Source of the DNA: a virus
Taxonomy: Duplodnaviria > Caudoviricetes
Length of the DNA stretch: 35,281 nucleotides
Reading direction: 5' to 3' (one strand)
Virus record (IMG/VR): IMGVR_UViG_3300032212_000691
Location: 1 to 35,281 of that record
A program made the translations under genes and the position numbers. This document shows, piece after piece, positions 1,636 to 29,291 of the stretch. The notes beneath the pieces are model-generated. The model worked only from the letters and a program-made list of their open reading frames with translations. It was not told where the DNA came from and made no database searches. Position 1 is the first letter of the stretch. Each line of letters starts with the position of its first letter.

Positions 1636-4600
1636 TACACTGCTGCCTTTATTTTAAGTCCATCTATATCCCAATCTTCAAAAATATCTAATATCTCTTT
1701 TTGTGTTTTTAATTGCTCAAGTAACATTGCATTTTGTTCTTTTAAGATAATATTTTGTTCTTTTAAGTCTTCATTATTTTTGAATGTAGGGATATTTAAA
1801 GAATTTCCATTTTGTCCTTTTCTTTGTGCTTCGAGTCTTGCCAGTATGTCGCGGTTAATCGGGTTATGTACCTGTTTACTAGTTAGTACATACTCATCTT
1901 TATGCACTGAACCAGCTAAGGCATTACTGTTTCCAAAGCCTGTATAACCGCCACCTTTAAAACCCTCATTTGAGAGCCAGTCATCAACAATTGCGTAACC
2001 AGCTGGATTATTTTCAGCAAGTGCAGCAACACGAAGTTGTGATGCGAAAGTGTCAGTTAGATCATCACTTGTTTTTCCAGCTATTAAGTCTGAGTAAGAT
2101 GCTCCTGAATATGTACTTGGAGTACTTGGAGCTATAGCAACATTATTACTTTGAACAGTTGCTTCAGTTCGTACACCATTTACATAAATTACTGGAGATA
2201 CGTTAATTGTAGGGTCAAAGCTTTTTTGATTTATTAGGTTTTGTAGCCCTAAAAGTTCATCTTTAGCAATACTTGCTAACTCTTCAGTACTTTTTGCAAT
2301 GGTTGGATCATATGAGAGTATCGCTGCTTGAATGTCTGACATGTAGCGATTGGTCTCAACTGTTAGCTCCTCTTGTGTCTTTTGCGCTTTTGAAAGTCCA
2401 CCAACACCTTTTAATTGCGCTGATATTCTTGCAAATTCAAATTTATAATTAGATGCATCTGAGTACTCTTTTAGATTTGTTAAATATGCTTTTGAATTTT
2501 CAACAACACGGCTTAAATATAGAGATGTATCATCGCTATTACCTGAGTTCATAGCACTTTGTAAACTAGTAAATGCTGTTTTATACTCAGATAGTGCAAC
2601 ACTTGCACGGTCTTGGTAACTTAAATAACTAATGGAATCATCTAAGCTCATACTTATAACTGAGTCATGTAAGCTATTTGTAACGCTCTCAATGTTTGCA
2701 ACAATACTTGTCTGCTCATCTAGTGTGCTTTTGTAACTAGAGAGCATAGAGTTAAATGTATTAATCTCTTTTTTAATATCTTTGCCACTTTTAATAACTG
2801 CTAGTTGATTATCTAGGTCTTTCTTGGTATAGCTTTTATTATTAACACTTAGTCCATCATAGATGCCTTTTAGTTCAGTAGTTCCTTGATACCACTTCAT
2901 TATGTCATTTTGCATACCTGTAGCATCTGCTAAAAATGTCTCATTACTAGAATGTGCCAAATTGCTTGAGATATTTTTAACGTCTGAATATTTAAATGTT
3001 TTAGATGTAAGAGAACCAATACTATCTTGTACAGATGAACTAAGTGAACCTAACGCATTTTTAAAGTTATTAAGTGAAGTGATTGCAACATTTAAGAATG
3101 TAGTTGTACTTTTTAAAATGTCGCCAGATTTATCAAGTTCTGGATTATTAATAAGTGTATCTTTTATAGTATTTGCAGTATTTTTAATTCCATCTGCTCC
3201 CACCTTTAAAGCCCACGCAGAAGCTTTACCAATATCTACCCATTCATTGCCATCAATATATAACATTTGAGGATTTAGTATCTGATCAAATGTTGAATTA
3301 ACTGCTATTGTATATGCTTTTAAGTCACCACTTTTTTGCTCTTCTTCTTGTTTTAACTGCTTTGCACGTTGGTTCTCTAAAGTTGCTAATTTTTCAAGTC
3401 CATCACCAATAGAGATTATTGTCTTTAAATTCTCAGGAGTGAAGTAACTATTTTTTATTAGTTCGTCTGAAATTGATGTAAATGCTTTAAAGTCTAAATT
3501 ATCTAGTGCAGTTTGTAAGCCATCTACTTGTGGTAAAAGTGAGCCATAAATTGAGACTTGATTAGTTAGCTGTTTTTTAGATACGTTTATGTCATAATCT
3601 AAAATGTCCTCACCACTAATTTGTGCGTTTGTTCTTTTCCAGCCATCTTGTGTTGTTATAAATTCATTTACAGATTCAGTTAATGCTTGTGTTACAGTTT
3701 TGTCAACACTTTTAGCATATTCACTCCAAACATCATAAATCTTATCTAGTTCGCTATCTCCAATGGTTGTCGGGATATTACTTAGTCCAGTAAATGACTG
3801 TATAAAAGCTTTAGGCAATGCGGTATCGAGTAAAGTTGTACCACTATACATACCAGCTTGTACAACAATATCTTTATTATCAGTCAATGTGTCAAGCAGA
3901 TACTCATATGTTCCAAACAGCGCATTTATTTGAGACTTCTCTTGTGAGCTTAGTTCATTAACATCAGTCCAGCTCTTATCGTTAAACCAGCTATTTTTCT
4001 CAAAGCTTGAATAGCCTTGAATATCTGAAACATCACCATAACTGGCTGTTGATTGCAAGTTAAGCCCTGAGCCTACTTGTTTGGTTTTGCCAAACATTCC
4101 GCCAATTACAGAGCCAAGCAGTGAACCGATTGCAATTCCTATTGGACCACCTAGTGAGCCTATAGCTCCACCAATTGCCCCATAGCTTCCAGCTTTAGTG
4201 TCTACTCCTAAAAGTTTATCACCTAGTGAACCTACAACATAGCCACCCATAGCACCAAGTGCTATACCACCTAACGTTTGCCCGTAAATAATAGCACTTT
4301 CGCCAGTTGTTGCTAACCCTTGTGTAAATGGATTTGCAAGACCATAACCAAAGCCACCAACTGAATTTGCAACACTTGTGAAACCAAGAGAGTTAAGTCC
4401 GCCAGCTATTGTTTGAGAACCGCTTATTATTGAGCCACTTATTCCACTTGTTGCTAAACCATACGCACTTTTTAATCCACTTGCGTAATTTAATGTAGAA
4501 GATAAATCACTATTTCCTGAAATTAAACTAGCACCTTGAAGAACTTGACCTGCGCTATCAACCACTATTTGGTTATCAGTACCACCAACCCAATTAGCAC

Positions 4601-7049: not shown

Positions 7050-7613
7050 CTACACCACTGGAATCAGATACTCTTTAAAGTATCCATCTGTATCATGTTT
7101 TAAAACTTCACCATCAAATTTTAAACTTGCAAAATCTTCACTCATAAAAGCTACTGAATCATTTGAACTTACAACAGCAATTGGAATTTCAAGAACTGGT
7201 TGGTTAGCACCTGCTGCAACTTCAGCTACAAATTTAAACTTACCTTTTAAAAGAGCTTGTTCACCACCTTTAATTACATCTAGTGTAGTATCTGCTGCTG
7301 CAATAGATCCATTTGGTAATGTTGCACCTAAAAGAAAAATTTCAGTTACTAGTGTTGCATTTAAAGCCATTGCTAGATTTTCTTTATTCAATCTAATAGT
7401 GCTAAAACTTAGAGTTGAACTAAAGCTTGTTGCAACTTTGTCAGACTTAACAGGAAGCGCACCATCTTTATTCATAGCTTCTGCAAAGTCAGTATTTGTT
7501 TGTAAACTTACATCTTGAACTTCACCAATCTCACGTTCTGCTACATAAGTAGCACCATCAGCATTTAACTGACTAAAGTAAAGTTTTCCACCTGCTATGT
7601 ATCTATCGCTCAT
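7050..7613 (-). CDS. Major tail (tube) protein
   Basis: 187 aa, YIAGGKLYF...EIGEV, beta-rich; synteny. Confidence 0.75.
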   Translation of the reverse strand: MSDRYIAGGKLYFSQLNADGATYVAEREIGEVQDVSLQTNTDFAEAMNKDGALPVKSDKVATSFSSTLSFSTIRLNKENLAMALNATLVTEIFLLGATLPNGSIAAADTTLDVIKGGEQALLKGKFKFVAEVAAGANQPVLEIPIAVVSSNDSVAFMSEDFASLKFDGEVLKHDTDGYFKEYLIPVV

Positions 7614-7744
7614 TTGCTATCCTTTAGCTTTACGGCATTTATTTTTAAAAGTGATTTTGCATCTTCATCACTTAACTCAATCTCTTCACCTACCTTTACA
7701 GGCTTACCTTTATGCAACTTTTTTAGTGCAATATATGTCTTCAT
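7610..7744 (-). CDS. Small virion-module protein, 44 aa
   Basis: MKTYIALKKLHKGKPVKVGEEIELSDEDAKSLLKINAVKLKDSK; start/stop overlaps with both neighbours. Confidence 0.7.
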   Translation of the reverse strand: MKTYIALKKLHKGKPVKVGEEIELSDEDAKSLLKINAVKLKDSK

Positions 7745-8028
7745 TAATACCCCTTTATTAAAGTACTTACTTGAAAGATTTCTGTTTTAAAATCATCAAA
7801 ATCTAGCTTCGAACCTTCAAAACTAAAATCAGGTTCACCTGCACTTAATTTTAAAAGTGCTTTACGAATTTCTTCGCCCTTTTTTTCATGTTTTACAATG
7901 ACTCCAATAACTGCAAAGTAATCTAGACGACTTCCATCGTTTGGCCGTGAGCCAATAACTTTTACATCTGATACTGCAAAAGCCTCAACTACTACTTTTA
8001 CTATATTTATGGCTTCTATTTCTGTCAT
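7744..8028 (-). CDS. Putative tail completion protein
   Basis: 94 aa; called by synteny only. Confidence 0.45.
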   Translation of the reverse strand: MTEIEAINIVKVVVEAFAVSDVKVIGSRPNDGSRLDYFAVIGVIVKHEKKGEEIRKALLKLSAGEPDFSFEGSKLDFDDFKTEIFQVSTLIKGY

Positions 8029-8303
8029 GCTTCGCTCAATGCAATAATTGTTTCTAATTCATCATCTGTTGAATTAAAGTTTAAAACTTTATAAATAACT
8101 GCATCAATAGTTATTTGATCACCAAGCGCTATTAAACTAACATCAGATGTCATTGCTTTTATTACCTTGCTACTCATGTTGTCAATTCCATAATCATCTG
8201 CATAAAAGACATTAATATCAACTGTTTTATACGTTGCTATTGCATCTGCTAATTCTGTATAGATGTTTGGCAAGTCTGCTAATAGTGATGTTCTAATGCT
8301 CAT
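8025..8303 (-). CDS. Head-tail joining protein (gpFII-like)
   Basis: 92 aa with GDQITIDAVIYKV pattern; synteny. Confidence 0.65.
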   Translation of the reverse strand: MSIRTSLLADLPNIYTELADAIATYKTVDINVFYADDYGIDNMSSKVIKAMTSDVSLIALGDQITIDAVIYKVLNFNSTDDELETIIALSEA

Positions 8304-8485
8304 TACTTAGCTTTCTTTACTGTTTTCTTTTTCATTCCTTTAACCTCTTCAATTTCACCTGAAAAATTTTCAGCTTCTGAATTTAGAAACATTTTGTTGG
8401 CTAAACCATCAGGAACATCTAAGACATCCCCTTTTTTATAGCTTGCCCCTCGAAAGTCAATATCTACAAGTAGTTTGACTTTCAT
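8303..8485 (-). CDS. Small head-module protein
   Basis: 60 aa, YKKGDVLDV motif, basic tail; coupled to the next gene. Confidence 0.6.
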   Translation of the reverse strand: MKVKLLVDIDFRGASYKKGDVLDVPDGLANKMFLNSEAENFSGEIEEVKGMKKKTVKKAK

Positions 8486-8488
8486 CTG

Positions 8489-8821
8489 TTACCCAATCTT
8501 CACGTATACAGAACCAGAAGTTGCGCCAGCTTTTGTACTCATGGCGTGACCAGCTAATGTATTTGCTGTTGCTGTTGTGGTAACTGTTCGAGCTGTTGTA
8601 TCAAAATAAAGAACATCCCCAAATGCGATTGCATCTAATGTTGTTGCGGTAATTTCAAAGACACCCTCAAGTTCAAGACTGATAACGTCACCTGACACCG
8701 CATCATCTAGCGCAATACCGATACTGTCTGCCAATGGAACTACATCACCATTTGCAATAGTTGCAGTAGCTGTATAATCTACCACCGCGCCCTGTTGAAT
8801 TTTTGTTGCTTCTTTTGGCAT
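8489..8821 (-). CDS. Capsid cement/decoration protein (DUF2190-like)
   Basis: 110 aa, IQQG...EGVFE...GDVLYFD, directly after the capsid gene. Confidence 0.8.
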   Translation of the reverse strand: MPKEATKIQQGAVVDYTATATIANGDVVPLADSIGIALDDAVSGDVISLELEGVFEITATTLDAIAFGDVLYFDTTARTVTTTATANTLAGHAMSTKAGATSGSVYVKIG

Positions 8822-23457: not shown

Positions 23458-23709
23458 GCAGTGCCTCCTACGGCATAACTCTCTTATAAAGCAGACTCAT
23501 TCTTAAAACCGTAGGAGGCAAAGAATAAGAGTGAGCCTTATAAAAGTTCTTAATAGGCACTTTGGTACAATTAGGGGTTGTACTTAGTGCAACTTTTGTT
23601 TAAGAGGGTAGAGAGCTATCCGCTAAGATTGAACTCTCTATCCACTCTAATATGCCCTTGTGATATAATCTATTCGTCAAAACAAAATCACACACAAGGA
23701 CACATTACA

Positions 23710-23844
23710 ATGGGTAATGCAAAAAATTTTAAAGGTCACGACTTAGACAAATATTTCAATGAATATTTCAAAAAAAATAATCTTAAATATAAAATTCAAG
23801 ATGATATGTATATTTTTACCTACATCACTCCTCCAACCACTTAA
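23710..23844 (+). CDS. 44-aa antisense moron ORF
   Basis: TGATATAAT at 23661-23669, AAGGA SD, MGNAKNFKGHDLDKYF... Confidence 0.55.
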   Translation: MGNAKNFKGHDLDKYFNEYFKKNNLKYKIQDDMYIFTYITPPTT

Positions 23845-24075: not shown

Positions 24076-24567
24076 CTACTCAACCTGTTCATTATCATTA
24101 CCCAGCATCAATTCAATTTTACGTTGATTAGTCGCAAGAGCTGTTAATAATTTGCTTATTAAATCTTTTTCTTTTCCATCAATAACACCATCTTCACTAG
24201 CTACTTTTGATTCATTAGCAAGCTTACCAGCTAAATAATTGATTTCAAGAACACCCATTAGTAAGGCATTTACTATATCACCACCATCTGCCATTGCTTC
24301 AATTGGATCAAAGACTGTAAGACCACGTTCATTACACATTGCTTTTAGAATTGAGTCGTCATTTGTCAGCTCACATAATTTCAATGTTTCTTCAACAGTG
24401 AAACAATTATCAGGCATTGACGGTTTCAACTTATTGTCAAGCGTTCCTTTTTTAATCCCTAAAGCCGTTGCAACATCTTCACGGTCTTGGTGATTTTTAA
24501 GGCAGAATTCATTAATTATATTCTTCGCCGCTTTTGTTACTTTTGTATTTTTGCCTAAGTACATCAT
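24076..24567 (-). CDS. CII-like regulatory protein (186/CP76 type)
   Basis: VATALGIKKGTLDNKLKP; EDGVIDGKE; directly after cro. Confidence 0.8.
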   Translation of the reverse strand: MMYLGKNTKVTKAAKNIINEFCLKNHQDREDVATALGIKKGTLDNKLKPSMPDNCFTVEETLKLCELTNDDSILKAMCNERGLTVFDPIEAMADGGDIVNALLMGVLEINYLAGKLANESKVASEDGVIDGKEKDLISKLLTALATNQRKIELMLGNDNEQVE

Positions 24568-24791
24568 AAAGCCTTTTGTAATTGTTTTTCAGTTGTAGAA
24601 CTGTTACTATTCAACCATGGCAAATCAATCCAAATATTTGGATCTAATTGATGTTTATTTCTAAGTATTCTTTGCTTTGAAGCACTTGGAAGCATTCTTC
24701 CACTCATAATAGATTTAATTGAATCTGTTTCATAGAGTTTGGATTTTTCCAAAGTACTTTTGACAAATTGTCTATATTTATTGTTGTTCAT
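24564..24791 (-). CDS. Cro-like repressor, probably leaderless
   Basis: Divergent from cI; SIMSGRMLPS; TACACT 6 nt before ATG 24791. Confidence 0.65.
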   Translation of the reverse strand: MNNNKYRQFVKSTLEKSKLYETDSIKSIMSGRMLPSASKQRILRNKHQLDPNIWIDLPWLNSNSSTTEKQLQKAL

Positions 24792-24796
24792 ATTCG

Positions 24797-24877
24797 AAGT
24801 GTATAACACTTACACTTTAAACTTTCTTAAAAAGTGTGAACTACATACACTAATAAACGTGTATAATATATACACAG
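24797..24877. promoter_or_regulatory. OR-like region with three 21-bp operators
   Basis: AAGTGTA-N7-TACACTT (24797), AAGTGTG-N7-TACACTA (24832), ACGTGTA-N7-TACACAG (24857). Confidence 0.85.
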
Positions 24878-24889
24878 AAAAGGAAAATA

Positions 24890-25579
24890 ATGGCACGTAT
24901 TTTTAATGTAGATTTAATGTATGAGAAATTAAAGGCAAAAGGTAAAATGCAAAAAGATGTTCCTGAAATTTTATTACATATGGGTATAAAAACTGGAATA
25001 GATACAGTAAAGTCGTGGTCCAGAGGTGATAACCCAACCAATCCTACACTAGAACGTGTTGTAGCTTTAGCAAAATATTTAGATATTGATTTTACAGAGC
25101 TATTAAACATTGAAAGAAAAACTCAGCATCAAGCAAATAATACTGAAGCAATACCAATTCCTATTATTAGCAATATAAAAGCTGGTGCAGGAGCTGAGGG
25201 AATATTGCCTGACTTTATAGATGAATCAGAAACAATTGCATTTGCTCCAAAATTTCTAAATGGTGCAAATCCTAAAAACTTGCGCATCATCCAAGTTGCA
25301 AGCGATAGTATGTCTCCAACAATAAAACCTGATGAGTGGCTTATATTTGACATGTTGTTTGGCAGAAGTATTGAGTATATTGATGGAATCTATCTAATTA
25401 ATCGTGATGGCTCTATTCAAGTGAAACGCTTAGAGTTTCAAGGAACTAAAGGAATTGACATTATCAGCGATAACCCTACTTATGCAGTTAAAAATACAGT
25501 TAAAGATAGTATTGAGTTAGAAATCATCGGTAAATTGTACAAGCACGTAGTTAGTTATGGTGCTGTGGTTGAGAAATAA
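24890..25579 (+). CDS. cI: CI-like repressor (HTH + S24 peptidase)
   Basis: N-terminal HTH, KAGAG cleavage region, SDSMSP and VKRL catalytic motifs. Confidence 0.92.
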   Translation: MARIFNVDLMYEKLKAKGKMQKDVPEILLHMGIKTGIDTVKSWSRGDNPTNPTLERVVALAKYLDIDFTELLNIERKTQHQANNTEAIPIPIISNIKAGAGAEGILPDFIDESETIAFAPKFLNGANPKNLRIIQVASDSMSPTIKPDEWLIFDMLFGRSIEYIDGIYLINRDGSIQVKRLEFQGTKGIDIISDNPTYAVKNTVKDSIELEIIGKLYKHVVSYGAVVEK

Positions 25580-25596
25580 AAACGGAGGGTATTAAT

Positions 25597-26148
25597 ATAA
25601 ATCATCATCACATATTAAACATTTATGATTTTGATTCTTTCGCATGTGAGCTTGTCAACAAAGATGAGCATCATCCTGATGGACAAAGATTATTATTAAA
25701 GATATTAAAAGATGATAATCAAATAACTATTGATGGTAAAGAAACTGAATGGATTCTAAGCGGACTTGTCGCACATCTTGCATATATAGGATTTGATGAG
25801 GAATTCAAACATGATGGAATTCTTCAGTTAATACATGAAAATTGTATAAGAATACTAAGATTTAGTGCTTTCAATGAAATTACTTTAAAACCTCTATTAG
25901 ACGTTGTCACGCTTTGGCTTTACCTTGGTTTTGAATTTAAAAAGTCAATAGAAAGAAGCACTTTTATAGCTACTTTAATTAACTGGATTGATGAATATGA
26001 TATTGAATATAACATTAATGACATAGAAAATGATACAATGACAGTTACAATTAGTAATTTAAAAGAAGATATTCAAAAATATAAATTTCCTGATTTTCTT
26101 AAAACAAGCAACTACTATATATTAAATCTATACAAAGATGTAGCATGA
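25597..26148 (+). CDS. GNAT-fold-like protein with non-canonical (ATA or ATT) start
   Basis: Frame open from 25573 to 26148 with no ATG/GTG/TTG until 26038; GGAGG at 25584; LAYIGFDEEFKHDGIL...ITLKP...LWLYLGF; ATGA overlap with the next gene. Confidence 0.7.
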   Translation: MNHHHILNIYDFDSFACELVNKDEHHPDGQRLLLKILKDDNQITIDGKETEWILSGLVAHLAYIGFDEEFKHDGILQLIHENCIRILRFSAFNEITLKPLLDVVTLWLYLGFEFKKSIERSTFIATLINWIDEYDIEYNINDIENDTMTVTISNLKEDIQKYKFPDFLKTSNYYILNLYKDVA

Positions 26149-26936
26149 AAAGACTTCTTATATATACAAATAAAAATAAAAAAAGACTTGCTTTTGATGG
26201 TATTATCACAAGAAAGAATGAGTTATTTTTTACTAAATTTTGTTTAATTGATAGCTATAAGGAGATAGTACTGTCTATACTAGATAAGAGTTTTACTATG
26301 GAATTTAAAGACAGAAATTTCACAGTAAATGATATAGAAGATACTTTTGAAAGATTTGATACTGTTGAACAAGAGACTAATTTAATTCACAAAAACATAC
26401 AAACTGTCTCCCCTGACTATATATTAGATATTATTTATCCAGATGGTATAGAAAAGCCTATAAATGTAAATAAAATATGTAATTTTTTTAATGTAAATAT
26501 TGAACAAGACAATCAGTTAGAATATGATGGGTTAGCAATATCTGACGTAAATACTTATACTATTAAATATAGAAAAGGACAGTATGGAGATGTTAAAGAT
26601 AGATTTACCATAGGGCATGAACTAGGTCATATCTTTTTGCATTTTCCATCAAACAAAGCATCTTTCATGGATAAGGGCGATGATTTACGAATGGTCGCTA
26701 GAGGTGCAACATCAAGTAGCTATAAAGATTTTAAGTTAGAAATGGAAGCTGAAAGGTTTGCTGCCGAACTACTAATGCCTAAAAATGAAATTGAAATTTT
26801 TTTATTAGGGGCCAATAGAAGTGTCTATATGTCAGAATTAAGAAGAATGTTTAATGTCTCTAACGGTGCTATTTATAAAGCATTAAATACATACGGTCTT
26901 TTATCGAAAGTTATAGATGATTGCAGGTCATGGTAA
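26145..26936 (+). CDS. ImmA/IrrE-family zinc metallopeptidase
   Basis: RFTIGHELGH and EMEAERFAAELLMP; N-terminal extension of about 90 aa. Confidence 0.92.
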   Translation: MKRLLIYTNKNKKRLAFDGIITRKNELFFTKFCLIDSYKEIVLSILDKSFTMEFKDRNFTVNDIEDTFERFDTVEQETNLIHKNIQTVSPDYILDIIYPDGIEKPINVNKICNFFNVNIEQDNQLEYDGLAISDVNTYTIKYRKGQYGDVKDRFTIGHELGHIFLHFPSNKASFMDKGDDLRMVARGATSSSYKDFKLEMEAERFAAELLMPKNEIEIFLLGANRSVYMSELRRMFNVSNGAIYKALNTYGLLSKVIDDCRSW

Positions 26937-27129
26937 TCACTTAAGCACCGCCCTCAACTTAACACTCCCAATAAAAGTTCCATAATCAATAACAATACGA
27001 AGACCCCTTTTTCTACAAACAAATATACTTCTTATTAGTTTATAATAATTTTATCTAACTGCTGTCTTACTTTAATATATATACATATTCCTATTAATCT
27101 TTTAAAAAGAAAAATCATAGTTTTACACT

Positions 27130-27186
27130 AAGTGTATTTAAAATACATTATTTTAAGAATTCTATAAGTGTATTCTTGTTACACTT
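27130..27186. promoter_or_regulatory. OL-like region: two operators, one overlapping a TGT-TACACT promoter
   Basis: AAGTGTA-N7-TACATTA (27130) and AAGTGTA-N7-TACACTT (27166). Confidence 0.85.
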
Positions 27187-27395
27187 CTATCATGCAAACA
27201 AAACGAAGCTCTCAAAGTTTGAGAATGATTTGTTTGTGGCTGATACCCTAAGACCCCGCGGGAGAGTCCGTGACTGAGTGATGATGAATATCTATCTTGT
27301 TGAAGATGCCCTGACTGTAGCTAAGTAAAATAAAGCAGTTTTAATGAGCGCACGTATATACCTAACGTGCGATAAATAAATATAAGGTATGAACA

Positions 27396-27479
27396 TTTAC
27401 ATTCACTCAACCGCCTTAAACAACTAAAAATCCAACACTAAGGTTACATTTCACTCTCAGGTGGTTGATTGAGTGTAAA
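27396..27479 (+). repeat. Long RNA hairpin, copy 1
   Basis: TTTACATTCACTCAACCGCC ... GGTGGTTGATTGAGTGTAAA. Confidence 0.85.
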
Positions 27480-27498
27480 ACTCAGATAAGGAGACTCT

Positions 27499-27813
27499 AT
27501 GTCGTTAGAAGTAAGTGAACCAAGTATTGACCAATTTATTAATGCACTACGTTCATTAGATGGTGGAACAGTTGCTAGTCATGCAGCAGATGGTTTAAGT
27601 GAATGTATCAAAGCAACAATGATTGAAAATAAAAAATCAACACTGTCCATAAAATTTTCAATTGGAAAAATGGCAGAAGATCAGGTCGTTATGTCAGCAG
27701 TTGTTGCGACAAAAACACCTAAACCAGTTATTAAGACAGGCTTTTTCGTAACTCAGCATTATTTGCCAACACGAAATAGATCAGACCAAGGCGTACTGCC
27801 ATTTTCAAAATAA
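27499..27813 (+). CDS. YfdP-like phage protein
   Basis: LDGG...KKSTLSIKF...FF...LPTRN..Q pattern; precedes the YfdQ-like gene. Confidence 0.65.
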   Translation: MSLEVSEPSIDQFINALRSLDGGTVASHAADGLSECIKATMIENKKSTLSIKFSIGKMAEDQVVMSAVVATKTPKPVIKTGFFVTQHYLPTRNRSDQGVLPFSK

Positions 27814-29123: not shown

Positions 29124-29291
29124 ATGATGGCGGAAGAGAAGAAAACGGGTGTAAATAAAGTACAACTGACTTTAAGCGACCAATTAAAAGAAAAGCTTGA
29201 AAGTAGAGCCGATGAAGTTGGCATACCACTAACTCAATATATTATGAACTTAATAGTAAATGATGTAAAAGCACCAATTCATAAAGATTGA
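29124..29291 (+). CDS. RHH/CopG-like regulator, 55 aa
   Basis: KVQLTLSDQLKEKLESRADEVGIPLTQYIMNLI; AAGGA SD. Confidence 0.8.
   Translation: MMAEEKKTGVNKVQLTLSDQLKEKLESRADEVGIPLTQYIMNLIVNDVKAPIHKD

Follow-up and report, generated by a model that had tools for sequence, protein, structure and literature searches.

What is encoded in the gap that gene callers leave between the repressor gene of this phage DNA and the left operators beyond it, and what might the product do in a lysogen? A sequence-only reading of the window, meaning the whole stretch of 35,281 nucleotides analysed here, had placed an open reading frame of about 183 aa in the gap and taken it for a GNAT-like toxin, throttled by a weak start codon and paired with an IrrE-type peptidase. 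The reading frame proves to be a gene, the pairing stands in altered form and the throttle does not. Comparison of family loci points to a new two-gene family, in which a predicted GNAT acetyltransferase is followed by a partner that joins a putative docking domain to exchangeable cargo, and to an ATA start that is private to the window.

Table 1. Features of the cassette and its surroundings, in window coordinates
Feature	Position	Strand	Details
OR-like palindromes x3, GTGTA-N7-TACAC	24799..24875	.	starts 24799, 24834, 24859, between cro-like gene and cI
cI-like repressor	24890..25579	+	229 aa, HTH and S24 autoproteolytic domain; Peptidase_S24 E 1.2e-13 (Pfam), phrog_4 E 5e-27
Shine-Dalgarno (SD) GGAGG	25584..25588	+	8 nt before ATA
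Divergent gene of predicted GNAT fold	25597..26148	+	183 aa; homologues, AF2 model, Foldseek and VIA-align matches
ATA start	25597..25599	+	at start-Met position of closest homologues
Motif-A-like acetyl-CoA loop	25783..25836	+	residues 63-80; window FKHDG
Strand-helix segment ITLKP...LWLYLGF, conserved	25879..25932	+	residues 95-112; alignments
ATGA stop/start overlap, GNAT/peptidase	26145..26148	+	SD upstream nearly absent
N-terminal 'docking' domain (putative)	26145..26405	+	about 85 aa, beta-rich (AF2), no known family, common to non-peptidase partners
M78/IrrE-type Zn peptidase domain and HTH-like linker	26406..26936	+	HELGH 26616-26630; Peptidase_M78 PF06114 E 1e-9, above cut-off
OL-like palindromes x2, GTGTA-N7-TACAC	27132..27184	.	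downstream of cassette

The frame behind cI is free of stops from 25573 to 26148 (191 codons, or 183 aa counted from ATA 25597), and 2000 base-shuffled versions of this segment never attained the observed open length of 188 codons (mean 56, maximum 186). The nearest protein homologue (181 aa, 55% identity over 97% of its length) aligns its first Met to the ATA, and profile searches with the hidden GNAT returned 8 representatives and then 12 proteins. By itself the window GNAT has no significant match in Pfam, PHROGs, PADLOC, NCBIfam or PDB sequences. The other features first read from the letters are confirmed as well: the GGAGG ahead of the ATA, the lack of a standard start before 26038 (codon 156 is the first in-frame ATG, GTG or TTG) and the ATGA overlap with a HExxH peptidase, of 263 aa. 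A sequencing error at the ATA was considered and is ruled against by a public-run contig with a word depth of about 94, which is identical at every base of 24500-27500; this contig possibly comes from the source sample, so that a base-calling slip is excluded, yet it is not an independent isolate.

The cassette sits in a lambdoid immunity module, with a cII-like gene (Pfam CP76, E 4.6e-19) and a small cro-like ORF, minus strand. The palindrome GTGTA-N7-TACAC has 6 matches in the window against a chance mean of 0.98, and 6 were reached in 0 of 100 shuffles. With three copies before cI and two after the peptidase gene, the suggested slot between cI and OL holds, and the palindromes would mark OR and OL and serve cI as operators. 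The repressor does keep an S24 domain of its own, as had been noted. The window is identical to a 189,579-base contig across the stretch compared, which is consistent with an integrated prophage. A sixth operator-like palindrome, with one mismatch, lies at 29149-29165, upstream of the Rha-like gene region. A promoter and terminator scan of the window stayed at chance level and an Rfam search gave no match above gathering scores; an imperfect hairpin at 23645-23710, in the space that precedes the DnaB-like gene, has Rfam matches below them.

The GNAT-like nature of the hidden protein is borne out by its predicted fold. An AlphaFold2 model built from an 11-row alignment (pLDDT 89.5) has the GNAT alpha/beta arrangement, with an extra helical C-terminal region at residues 117-170. 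The Foldseek matches listed are GNAT-fold proteins, with a modest best E of 4e-4, and so are the 50 rows listed by VIA-align, again modest (best Z 8.6, rmsd 4.2, 127 aligned). The toxins TacT2 (Z 7.3) and AtaT (Z 7.1) fall within this list, which spans Z 7.0-8.6, and are near-tied with unrelated GNATs. The segment ITLKP...LWLYLGF is presumably motif-B-like. The acetyl-CoA loop, for which PMC7180214 gives the motif R/Q-x-x-G-x-G/A, is canonical as R/Q-x-x-G-x-A in the distant members L094, L096 and L093; it is degenerate in the window (KHDGIL), where the alignments show it to resemble the loop of intact close relatives. Distant family members have weak Pfam Acetyltransf matches, and the invariant GNAT columns are kept in the window copy, a strongly acidic protein (pI 4.8, net charge -14). 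Among viral structures in BFVD, its best matches (TM 0.56-0.61) are for the most part large proteins of phages, one of which has a head-morphogenesis domain. ESM Atlas holds nameless look-alike clusters of 228-268 aa in other phyla (scores 0.92-0.94); as leads, they suggest that the GNAT family reaches beyond Campylobacterota.

The DNA of 17 other family loci was gathered, to make 18 with the window, including the near-identical sets L083/84/85 and L088/92. Left out before counting were L097 (a 100-aa generic GNAT with a partial match), the window's own contig L079, and the repeats L091, L098-L105 and L114-L120, with L087 repeating L086 and L106 repeating L094; L121 was judged a false positive. 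A partner gene follows the GNAT gene directly in all 18 loci, through 14 ATGA overlaps, three one-base overlaps and one gap of 10 nt. The partner is an M78 peptidase in nine (the window, L080-L086 and L090) and carries other cargo in the remaining nine (L088, L092, L089, L093, L094, L095, L096, L122 and L123). Thus the proposed module of GNAT and peptidase survives as a constant downstream pairing, and its peptidase part does not: that domain is replaced in half the loci, and the constant part is the N-terminal domain (N-domain) of the partner.

The family is rare and patchy, with 7 members in 401 genomes sampled from one Campylobacterota order, and the relatives suggest that the host of the window belongs to that phylum. 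As a converse check, these 401 genomes were searched with an N-domain profile. It matched the 7 GNAT-adjacent genes (six of which were in the profile, the seventh being near-identical to one) and gave one weak match in a pilus-like operon, so it found no convincing copy of the domain away from a GNAT gene. No GNAT relative was found by tblastn with three different GNAT queries in phage and plasmid collections, nor among 78 distant peptidase loci, and scans of viral contigs returned either nothing or the L094 prophage itself.

The N-domains of the two partner types align with hhalign at 94.4% (E 9.1e-8); the real score is 44.0, 200 column shuffles reach 20.3 at most, and reversed or other slices score near zero. 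A profile from six non-peptidase partners matches residues 6-69 of the window peptidase (E 1.9e-6), and the held-out locus L122 matches the N-domain profile at E 5.6e-13. A first HMM test with a peptidase-only profile was negative (7.8 bits against shuffles of up to 9.1), and the shared domain became significant only after more non-peptidase sequences were added. L123 is negative with the N-domain profile; its match (40%, E 3e-4) comes from the full non-peptidase profile alone. Atlas gave no feature match for the N-domain above 0.83, and no structural match was obtained for the N-domain of the peptidase as folded within the whole protein.

Behind this domain, the window partner carries an intact zinc site, with H158, E159, H162 and E201 of HExxH...E invariant in 18 sequences. 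The model has an IrrE-like fold there and superimposes on CapP (7t5t, Z 16.1, rmsd 3.7, 159 aligned, model residues 88-263) and PprI (Z 11.3). PADLOC assigns the protein to capP at E 1.2e-17; the RmrA models of PADLOC match it at E 1.6e-11 and weaker, mainly in the C-terminal part. A GAF domain is absent, since the protein ends at residue 263 after the HTH-like linker, and the conserved partner gave no RHH or HTH family match. The peptidase C-terminus (26919-26933) has the tail V-I-D-D-C-R-x-W, in which D258, D259 and R261 are invariant in 18 sequences and the Cys is replaced in five; it recalls the CapP 'cysteine switch' of one Cys and two acidic residues described in 10.64898/2026.05.16.725639. 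The non-peptidase partners are 313-513 aa long; HExxH is absent in the seven checked, and none of six scanned has a family match. Their cargo of about 230-430 aa (L095:491-1495 and relatives) falls into at least two subtypes, has no match in Pfam, PHROGs, NCBIfam, PADLOC or PDB sequences, and is a candidate new effector or sensor domain.

The translation signals of the window copy are unusual at both genes. Two other near-cognate codons are in frame with the hidden gene (ATT 25591 and ATA 25612), and ATA 25597 is preferred because its SD spacing is normal and the closest homologues align their first Met to this codon. The start codons of the relatives come from six-frame DNA searches and are therefore free of gene-caller bias. 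They are ATG in 15 of the 17 other loci, GTG in L086, TTG in L093 and ATA in none, so ATA as a conserved throttle is rejected, and ATG in homologues is an outcome that the sequence-only reading had itself named as refuting; as far as the aligned loci tell, ATA is a lineage-specific replacement of ATG in the window prophage. AUA initiation in E. coli reaches about 1-2% of AUG (10.1101/063800). The SD of the window peptidase, at -1.1 kcal/mol, is also the weakest of 18 partners (-3.4 to -12.3 in the 17 relatives), because a conserved Lys codon that forms the partner's SD as AAG in 13 of 15 relatives is AAA here. The window partner would then depend on coupling, and both genes would drop together. 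The two changes thus likely turn the whole cassette down rather than tune a toxin:antitoxin ratio. The relatives have no consistent antitoxin-over-toxin bias, the partner SD being stronger than the GNAT SD in 9 of 17. The Lys itself is near-invariant at the GNAT C-terminus (window 26131-26148) in the relatives examined, and since its codon makes the SD, its conservation may act at the RNA level.

The window copy could also have been silenced altogether. If the loss of the ATG and of the partner SD were early decay, no useful protein would be made here, whatever the role of the family, and we give this a little under an even chance. Two separate translation signals are weakened in one copy, in a form of start seen in none of the other loci, and no standard start occurs inside the gene ahead of codon 156. 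Against decay, both frames are intact, with the invariant GNAT columns and HExxH...E kept, and among the 18 GNAT starts and the 24 window genes tested no SD is stronger than the one before the ATA (-10.0 kcal/mol, generic anti-SD), as expected if a weak start were compensated. This SD is compatible with low-level use; it is not decisive, because the SD of L096 is nearly equal (-9.3) with an ATG.

For the family as a whole, the sequence evidence makes a defence or toxin-antitoxin (TA) cassette, of either polarity, the probable reading. How it would work is more tentative, and the arrangement we prefer, held with less than even confidence, is that of a GNAT effector restrained by a docking domain, to which a variable sensor is joined. 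The cassette would be a mobile, likely translationally coupled two-gene unit with the predicted acetyltransferase as its likely effector. The N-terminal domain of the partner would keep the GNAT inactive by docking. The GNAT would be set free when the exchangeable rear domain, in the window an IrrE-type peptidase, detects infection or stress. From its place behind cI, the unit would be transcribed during lysogeny and guard the lysogen against other phages; chromosomal copies sit in restriction-modification (RM) islands. Binding, polarity, trigger and defence function are what we infer. The GNAT is favoured as effector because GNATs are established TA toxins (PMC7180214) and the M78 peptidases characterised in the cited papers, ImmA, IrrE, CapP and RmrA, are regulators or antitoxins (10.64898/2026.05.16.725639; 10.1101/2022.04.27.489752; PMC10440598). 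The closest viral folds, mostly large phage proteins, and the confinement of non-ATG starts to the GNAT gene (3 of 18 GNATs against 0 of 18 partners) point the same way. The acidic pI of the window GNAT is, by inference, unlike that of a tRNA-binding toxin; together with the other acidic members and a structural ranking that is flat, it speaks against a tRNA-acetylating toxin of the AtaT type, and therefore a protein target is more likely. GNAT domains in polyvalent proteins of phages and plasmids are predicted to modify proteins (PMC5512222).

The GNAT and the N-domain appear to travel together. Their trees are congruent (Mantel r 0.90, 14 pairs). Counting against the preferred arrangement, they require one cargo swap only. 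The net charge of the GNAT, which ranges from -19 to +12, is anticorrelated with that of the N-domain (rho -0.77, p 0.002, 13 non-redundant pairs) and not with that of the rest of the partner (rho +0.08). In the held-out L122 (GNAT -9, N-domain +3), both signs are flipped relative to its nearest relative L096 (+12, -8); L123 is uninformative. Within clades, p is 0.07-0.08, and six close-pair contrasts give four opposite, one same and one zero. The anticorrelation is a hint of direct binding and no proof, because kinship inflates it.

A close rival turns the polarity around. The partner would be the effector and the GNAT an enzymatic antitoxin that binds and acetylates the N-domain, until infection removes the mark or the enzyme; we consider this rather unlikely. 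It accounts for the constancy of the docking domain under variable cargo, and the free drift of charge is explained better than with a GNAT effector, since a GNAT that tracks the docking domain is easier to understand if the partner is its only substrate. The GNAT gene also comes first in the operon, the lost partner SD with coupling would hold the window partner at or below the GNAT level, and COG2856 peptidases have been predicted as toxins (PMC2701414). The weak start codons, found on the GNAT only, speak against it, as does the regulator or antitoxin role of the characterised M78 peptidases. We know of no acetylating antitoxin, and none was found in literature searches. In a related and still less probable proposal, the acetyltransferase would fit its cognate docking domain as lock and key, and the two would make a chassis onto which different effector domains are grafted and silenced by acetylation, reused in Campylobacterota prophage cI operons.

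In its proposed action the cassette would resemble lysogen defence of the TA or Rex type, and it shares some features with several known systems. Like lambda rexAB, the cassette consists of two genes between cI and OL, and by analogy expression in the lysogen would be expected; rexAB protects the lysogen against other phages, RexB is a membrane protein, and no relation to rexAB in sequence or fold is apparent. RosmerTA is also a two-gene module with an M78 peptidase, in which the ImmA-type protease RmrA is the antitoxin of variable RmrT toxins; members encoded by phages give protection against phages (PMC10440598). The fixed part of RosmerTA is the protease, in many cases headed by an HTH, and the toxin is what changes, whereas the present family keeps the GNAT and a beta-rich N-domain that is no HTH, and 9 of its 18 loci lack the peptidase. 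AtaRT, TacAT and ItaRT share the GNAT fold and the two-gene operon, and TacT and AtaT are among the structural matches. The present family differs in having no RHH or Xre antitoxin, its neighbour in the 18 loci being the N-domain partner; the pairings given in PMC2701414 are GNAT with RHH or Xre and COG2856 with Xre, PIN or RelE. Its GNAT also comes first, is acidic in many members, has the extra helical C-terminal region and resembles other GNATs in structure as much as it does these toxins.

The peptidase with its HTH-like linker superimposes on CapP and PprI and so recalls CapP-CapH, IrrE-DdrO and ImmA-ImmR. It has an added N-terminal domain and lacks the C-terminal GAF domain described for CapP (10.64898/2026.05.16.725639; 10.1101/2022.04.27.489752), which CapP and IrrE use for sensing ssDNA (10.64898/2026.05.16.725639). 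Unlike in CapP-CapH and ImmA-ImmR, no dedicated HTH substrate is adjacent; a cI-like gene is near 3 of 9 peptidase-type loci, and two of these repressors are self-cleaving. The modelled likeness to large phage proteins recalls the polyvalent-protein GNATs treated in PMC5512222, whereas the present GNAT stands alone, in an immunity operon or a defence island. No description of a pair of GNAT and M78 peptidase, or of GNAT and N-domain, was found in the literature; supplements of defence screens may hold one.

Apart from the generic peptidase domain, this candidate defence or TA family is absent from Pfam, PHROGs, NCBIfam and PADLOC, and it occurs in Campylobacterota, a phylum in which few systems have been characterised. 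A GNAT that acts as effector would be a toxin outside the tRNA-acetylating group, with an antitoxin fused to a sensor; a GNAT that acts as regulator would be an antitoxin working by acetylation. The ATA start is a lesson for annotation, a real gene being invisible to callers, and not a conserved mechanism.

The suggested defence-type neighbourhood is upheld by the genomic contexts. Prophage-like cI operons hold 5 of the 18 loci (the window, L081, L094, which is also an IMG/VR viral contig, L096 and L090), and RM genes adjoin or enclose another five (L083-85, L089, L095), with neighbours that include AbiE, TIR-like and ParE/Phd genes. Of the other copies, L088 belongs to an integrase island, L123 precedes an ORF read from the sequence as ATPase-like, and L082, L093 and L122 have mainly housekeeping genes around them. 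Because such contexts away from cI occur, the cassette is independent of the repressor. The same data bear on a mobile module without a defence role, in which a regulator, or an acetyltransferase of small molecules, has a sensor as its partner and the pair is carried along at the same insertion hot spots. The loci among housekeeping genes, the generic structural matches with their diverse substrates, and the lack of a PADLOC match for the GNAT and the non-peptidase partners would suit it. It is improbable in view of the patchy distribution, of captures behind cI that recur across different prophages, and of one copy that has entered a type I RM operon next to AbiE genes. That the peptidase is an ImmA-type antirepressor cleaving cI, with the GNAT as passenger, is very improbable, in line with the doubt voiced in the sequence-only reading: the M78 family and three of nine peptidase-type loci in cI operons allow it, and L081, whose repressor has no S24 match, is the one locus that would fit, but the other two of the three cI proteins have their own S24/UmuD-like domain, no cI lies upstream in L080 and L083-85 (upstream sequence is missing for L082 and L086), and the cI-operon loci L094 and L096 pair the GNAT with a partner that is not a peptidase, which argues against an ImmA role.

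Several neighbouring genes are of separate interest. In L083, and also in L084 and L085, a 299-aa gene (L083:7061-7960) lies between a fused RM gene and the cassette; it has weak winged-helix and TIR/nucleoside-deoxyribosyltransferase-like parts and matches PADLOC Effector/TIR at E 9.7e-17. In the prophage-like locus L113, a trio of an anti-sigma/HATPase-like, a small and a PIN-like gene (1787-3430) lies between cI and the cassette. In L107, with a prophage gene content similar to that of the window, an endonuclease gene (7613-8728; phrog_4225, E 1.8e-124) is convergent on the cassette.
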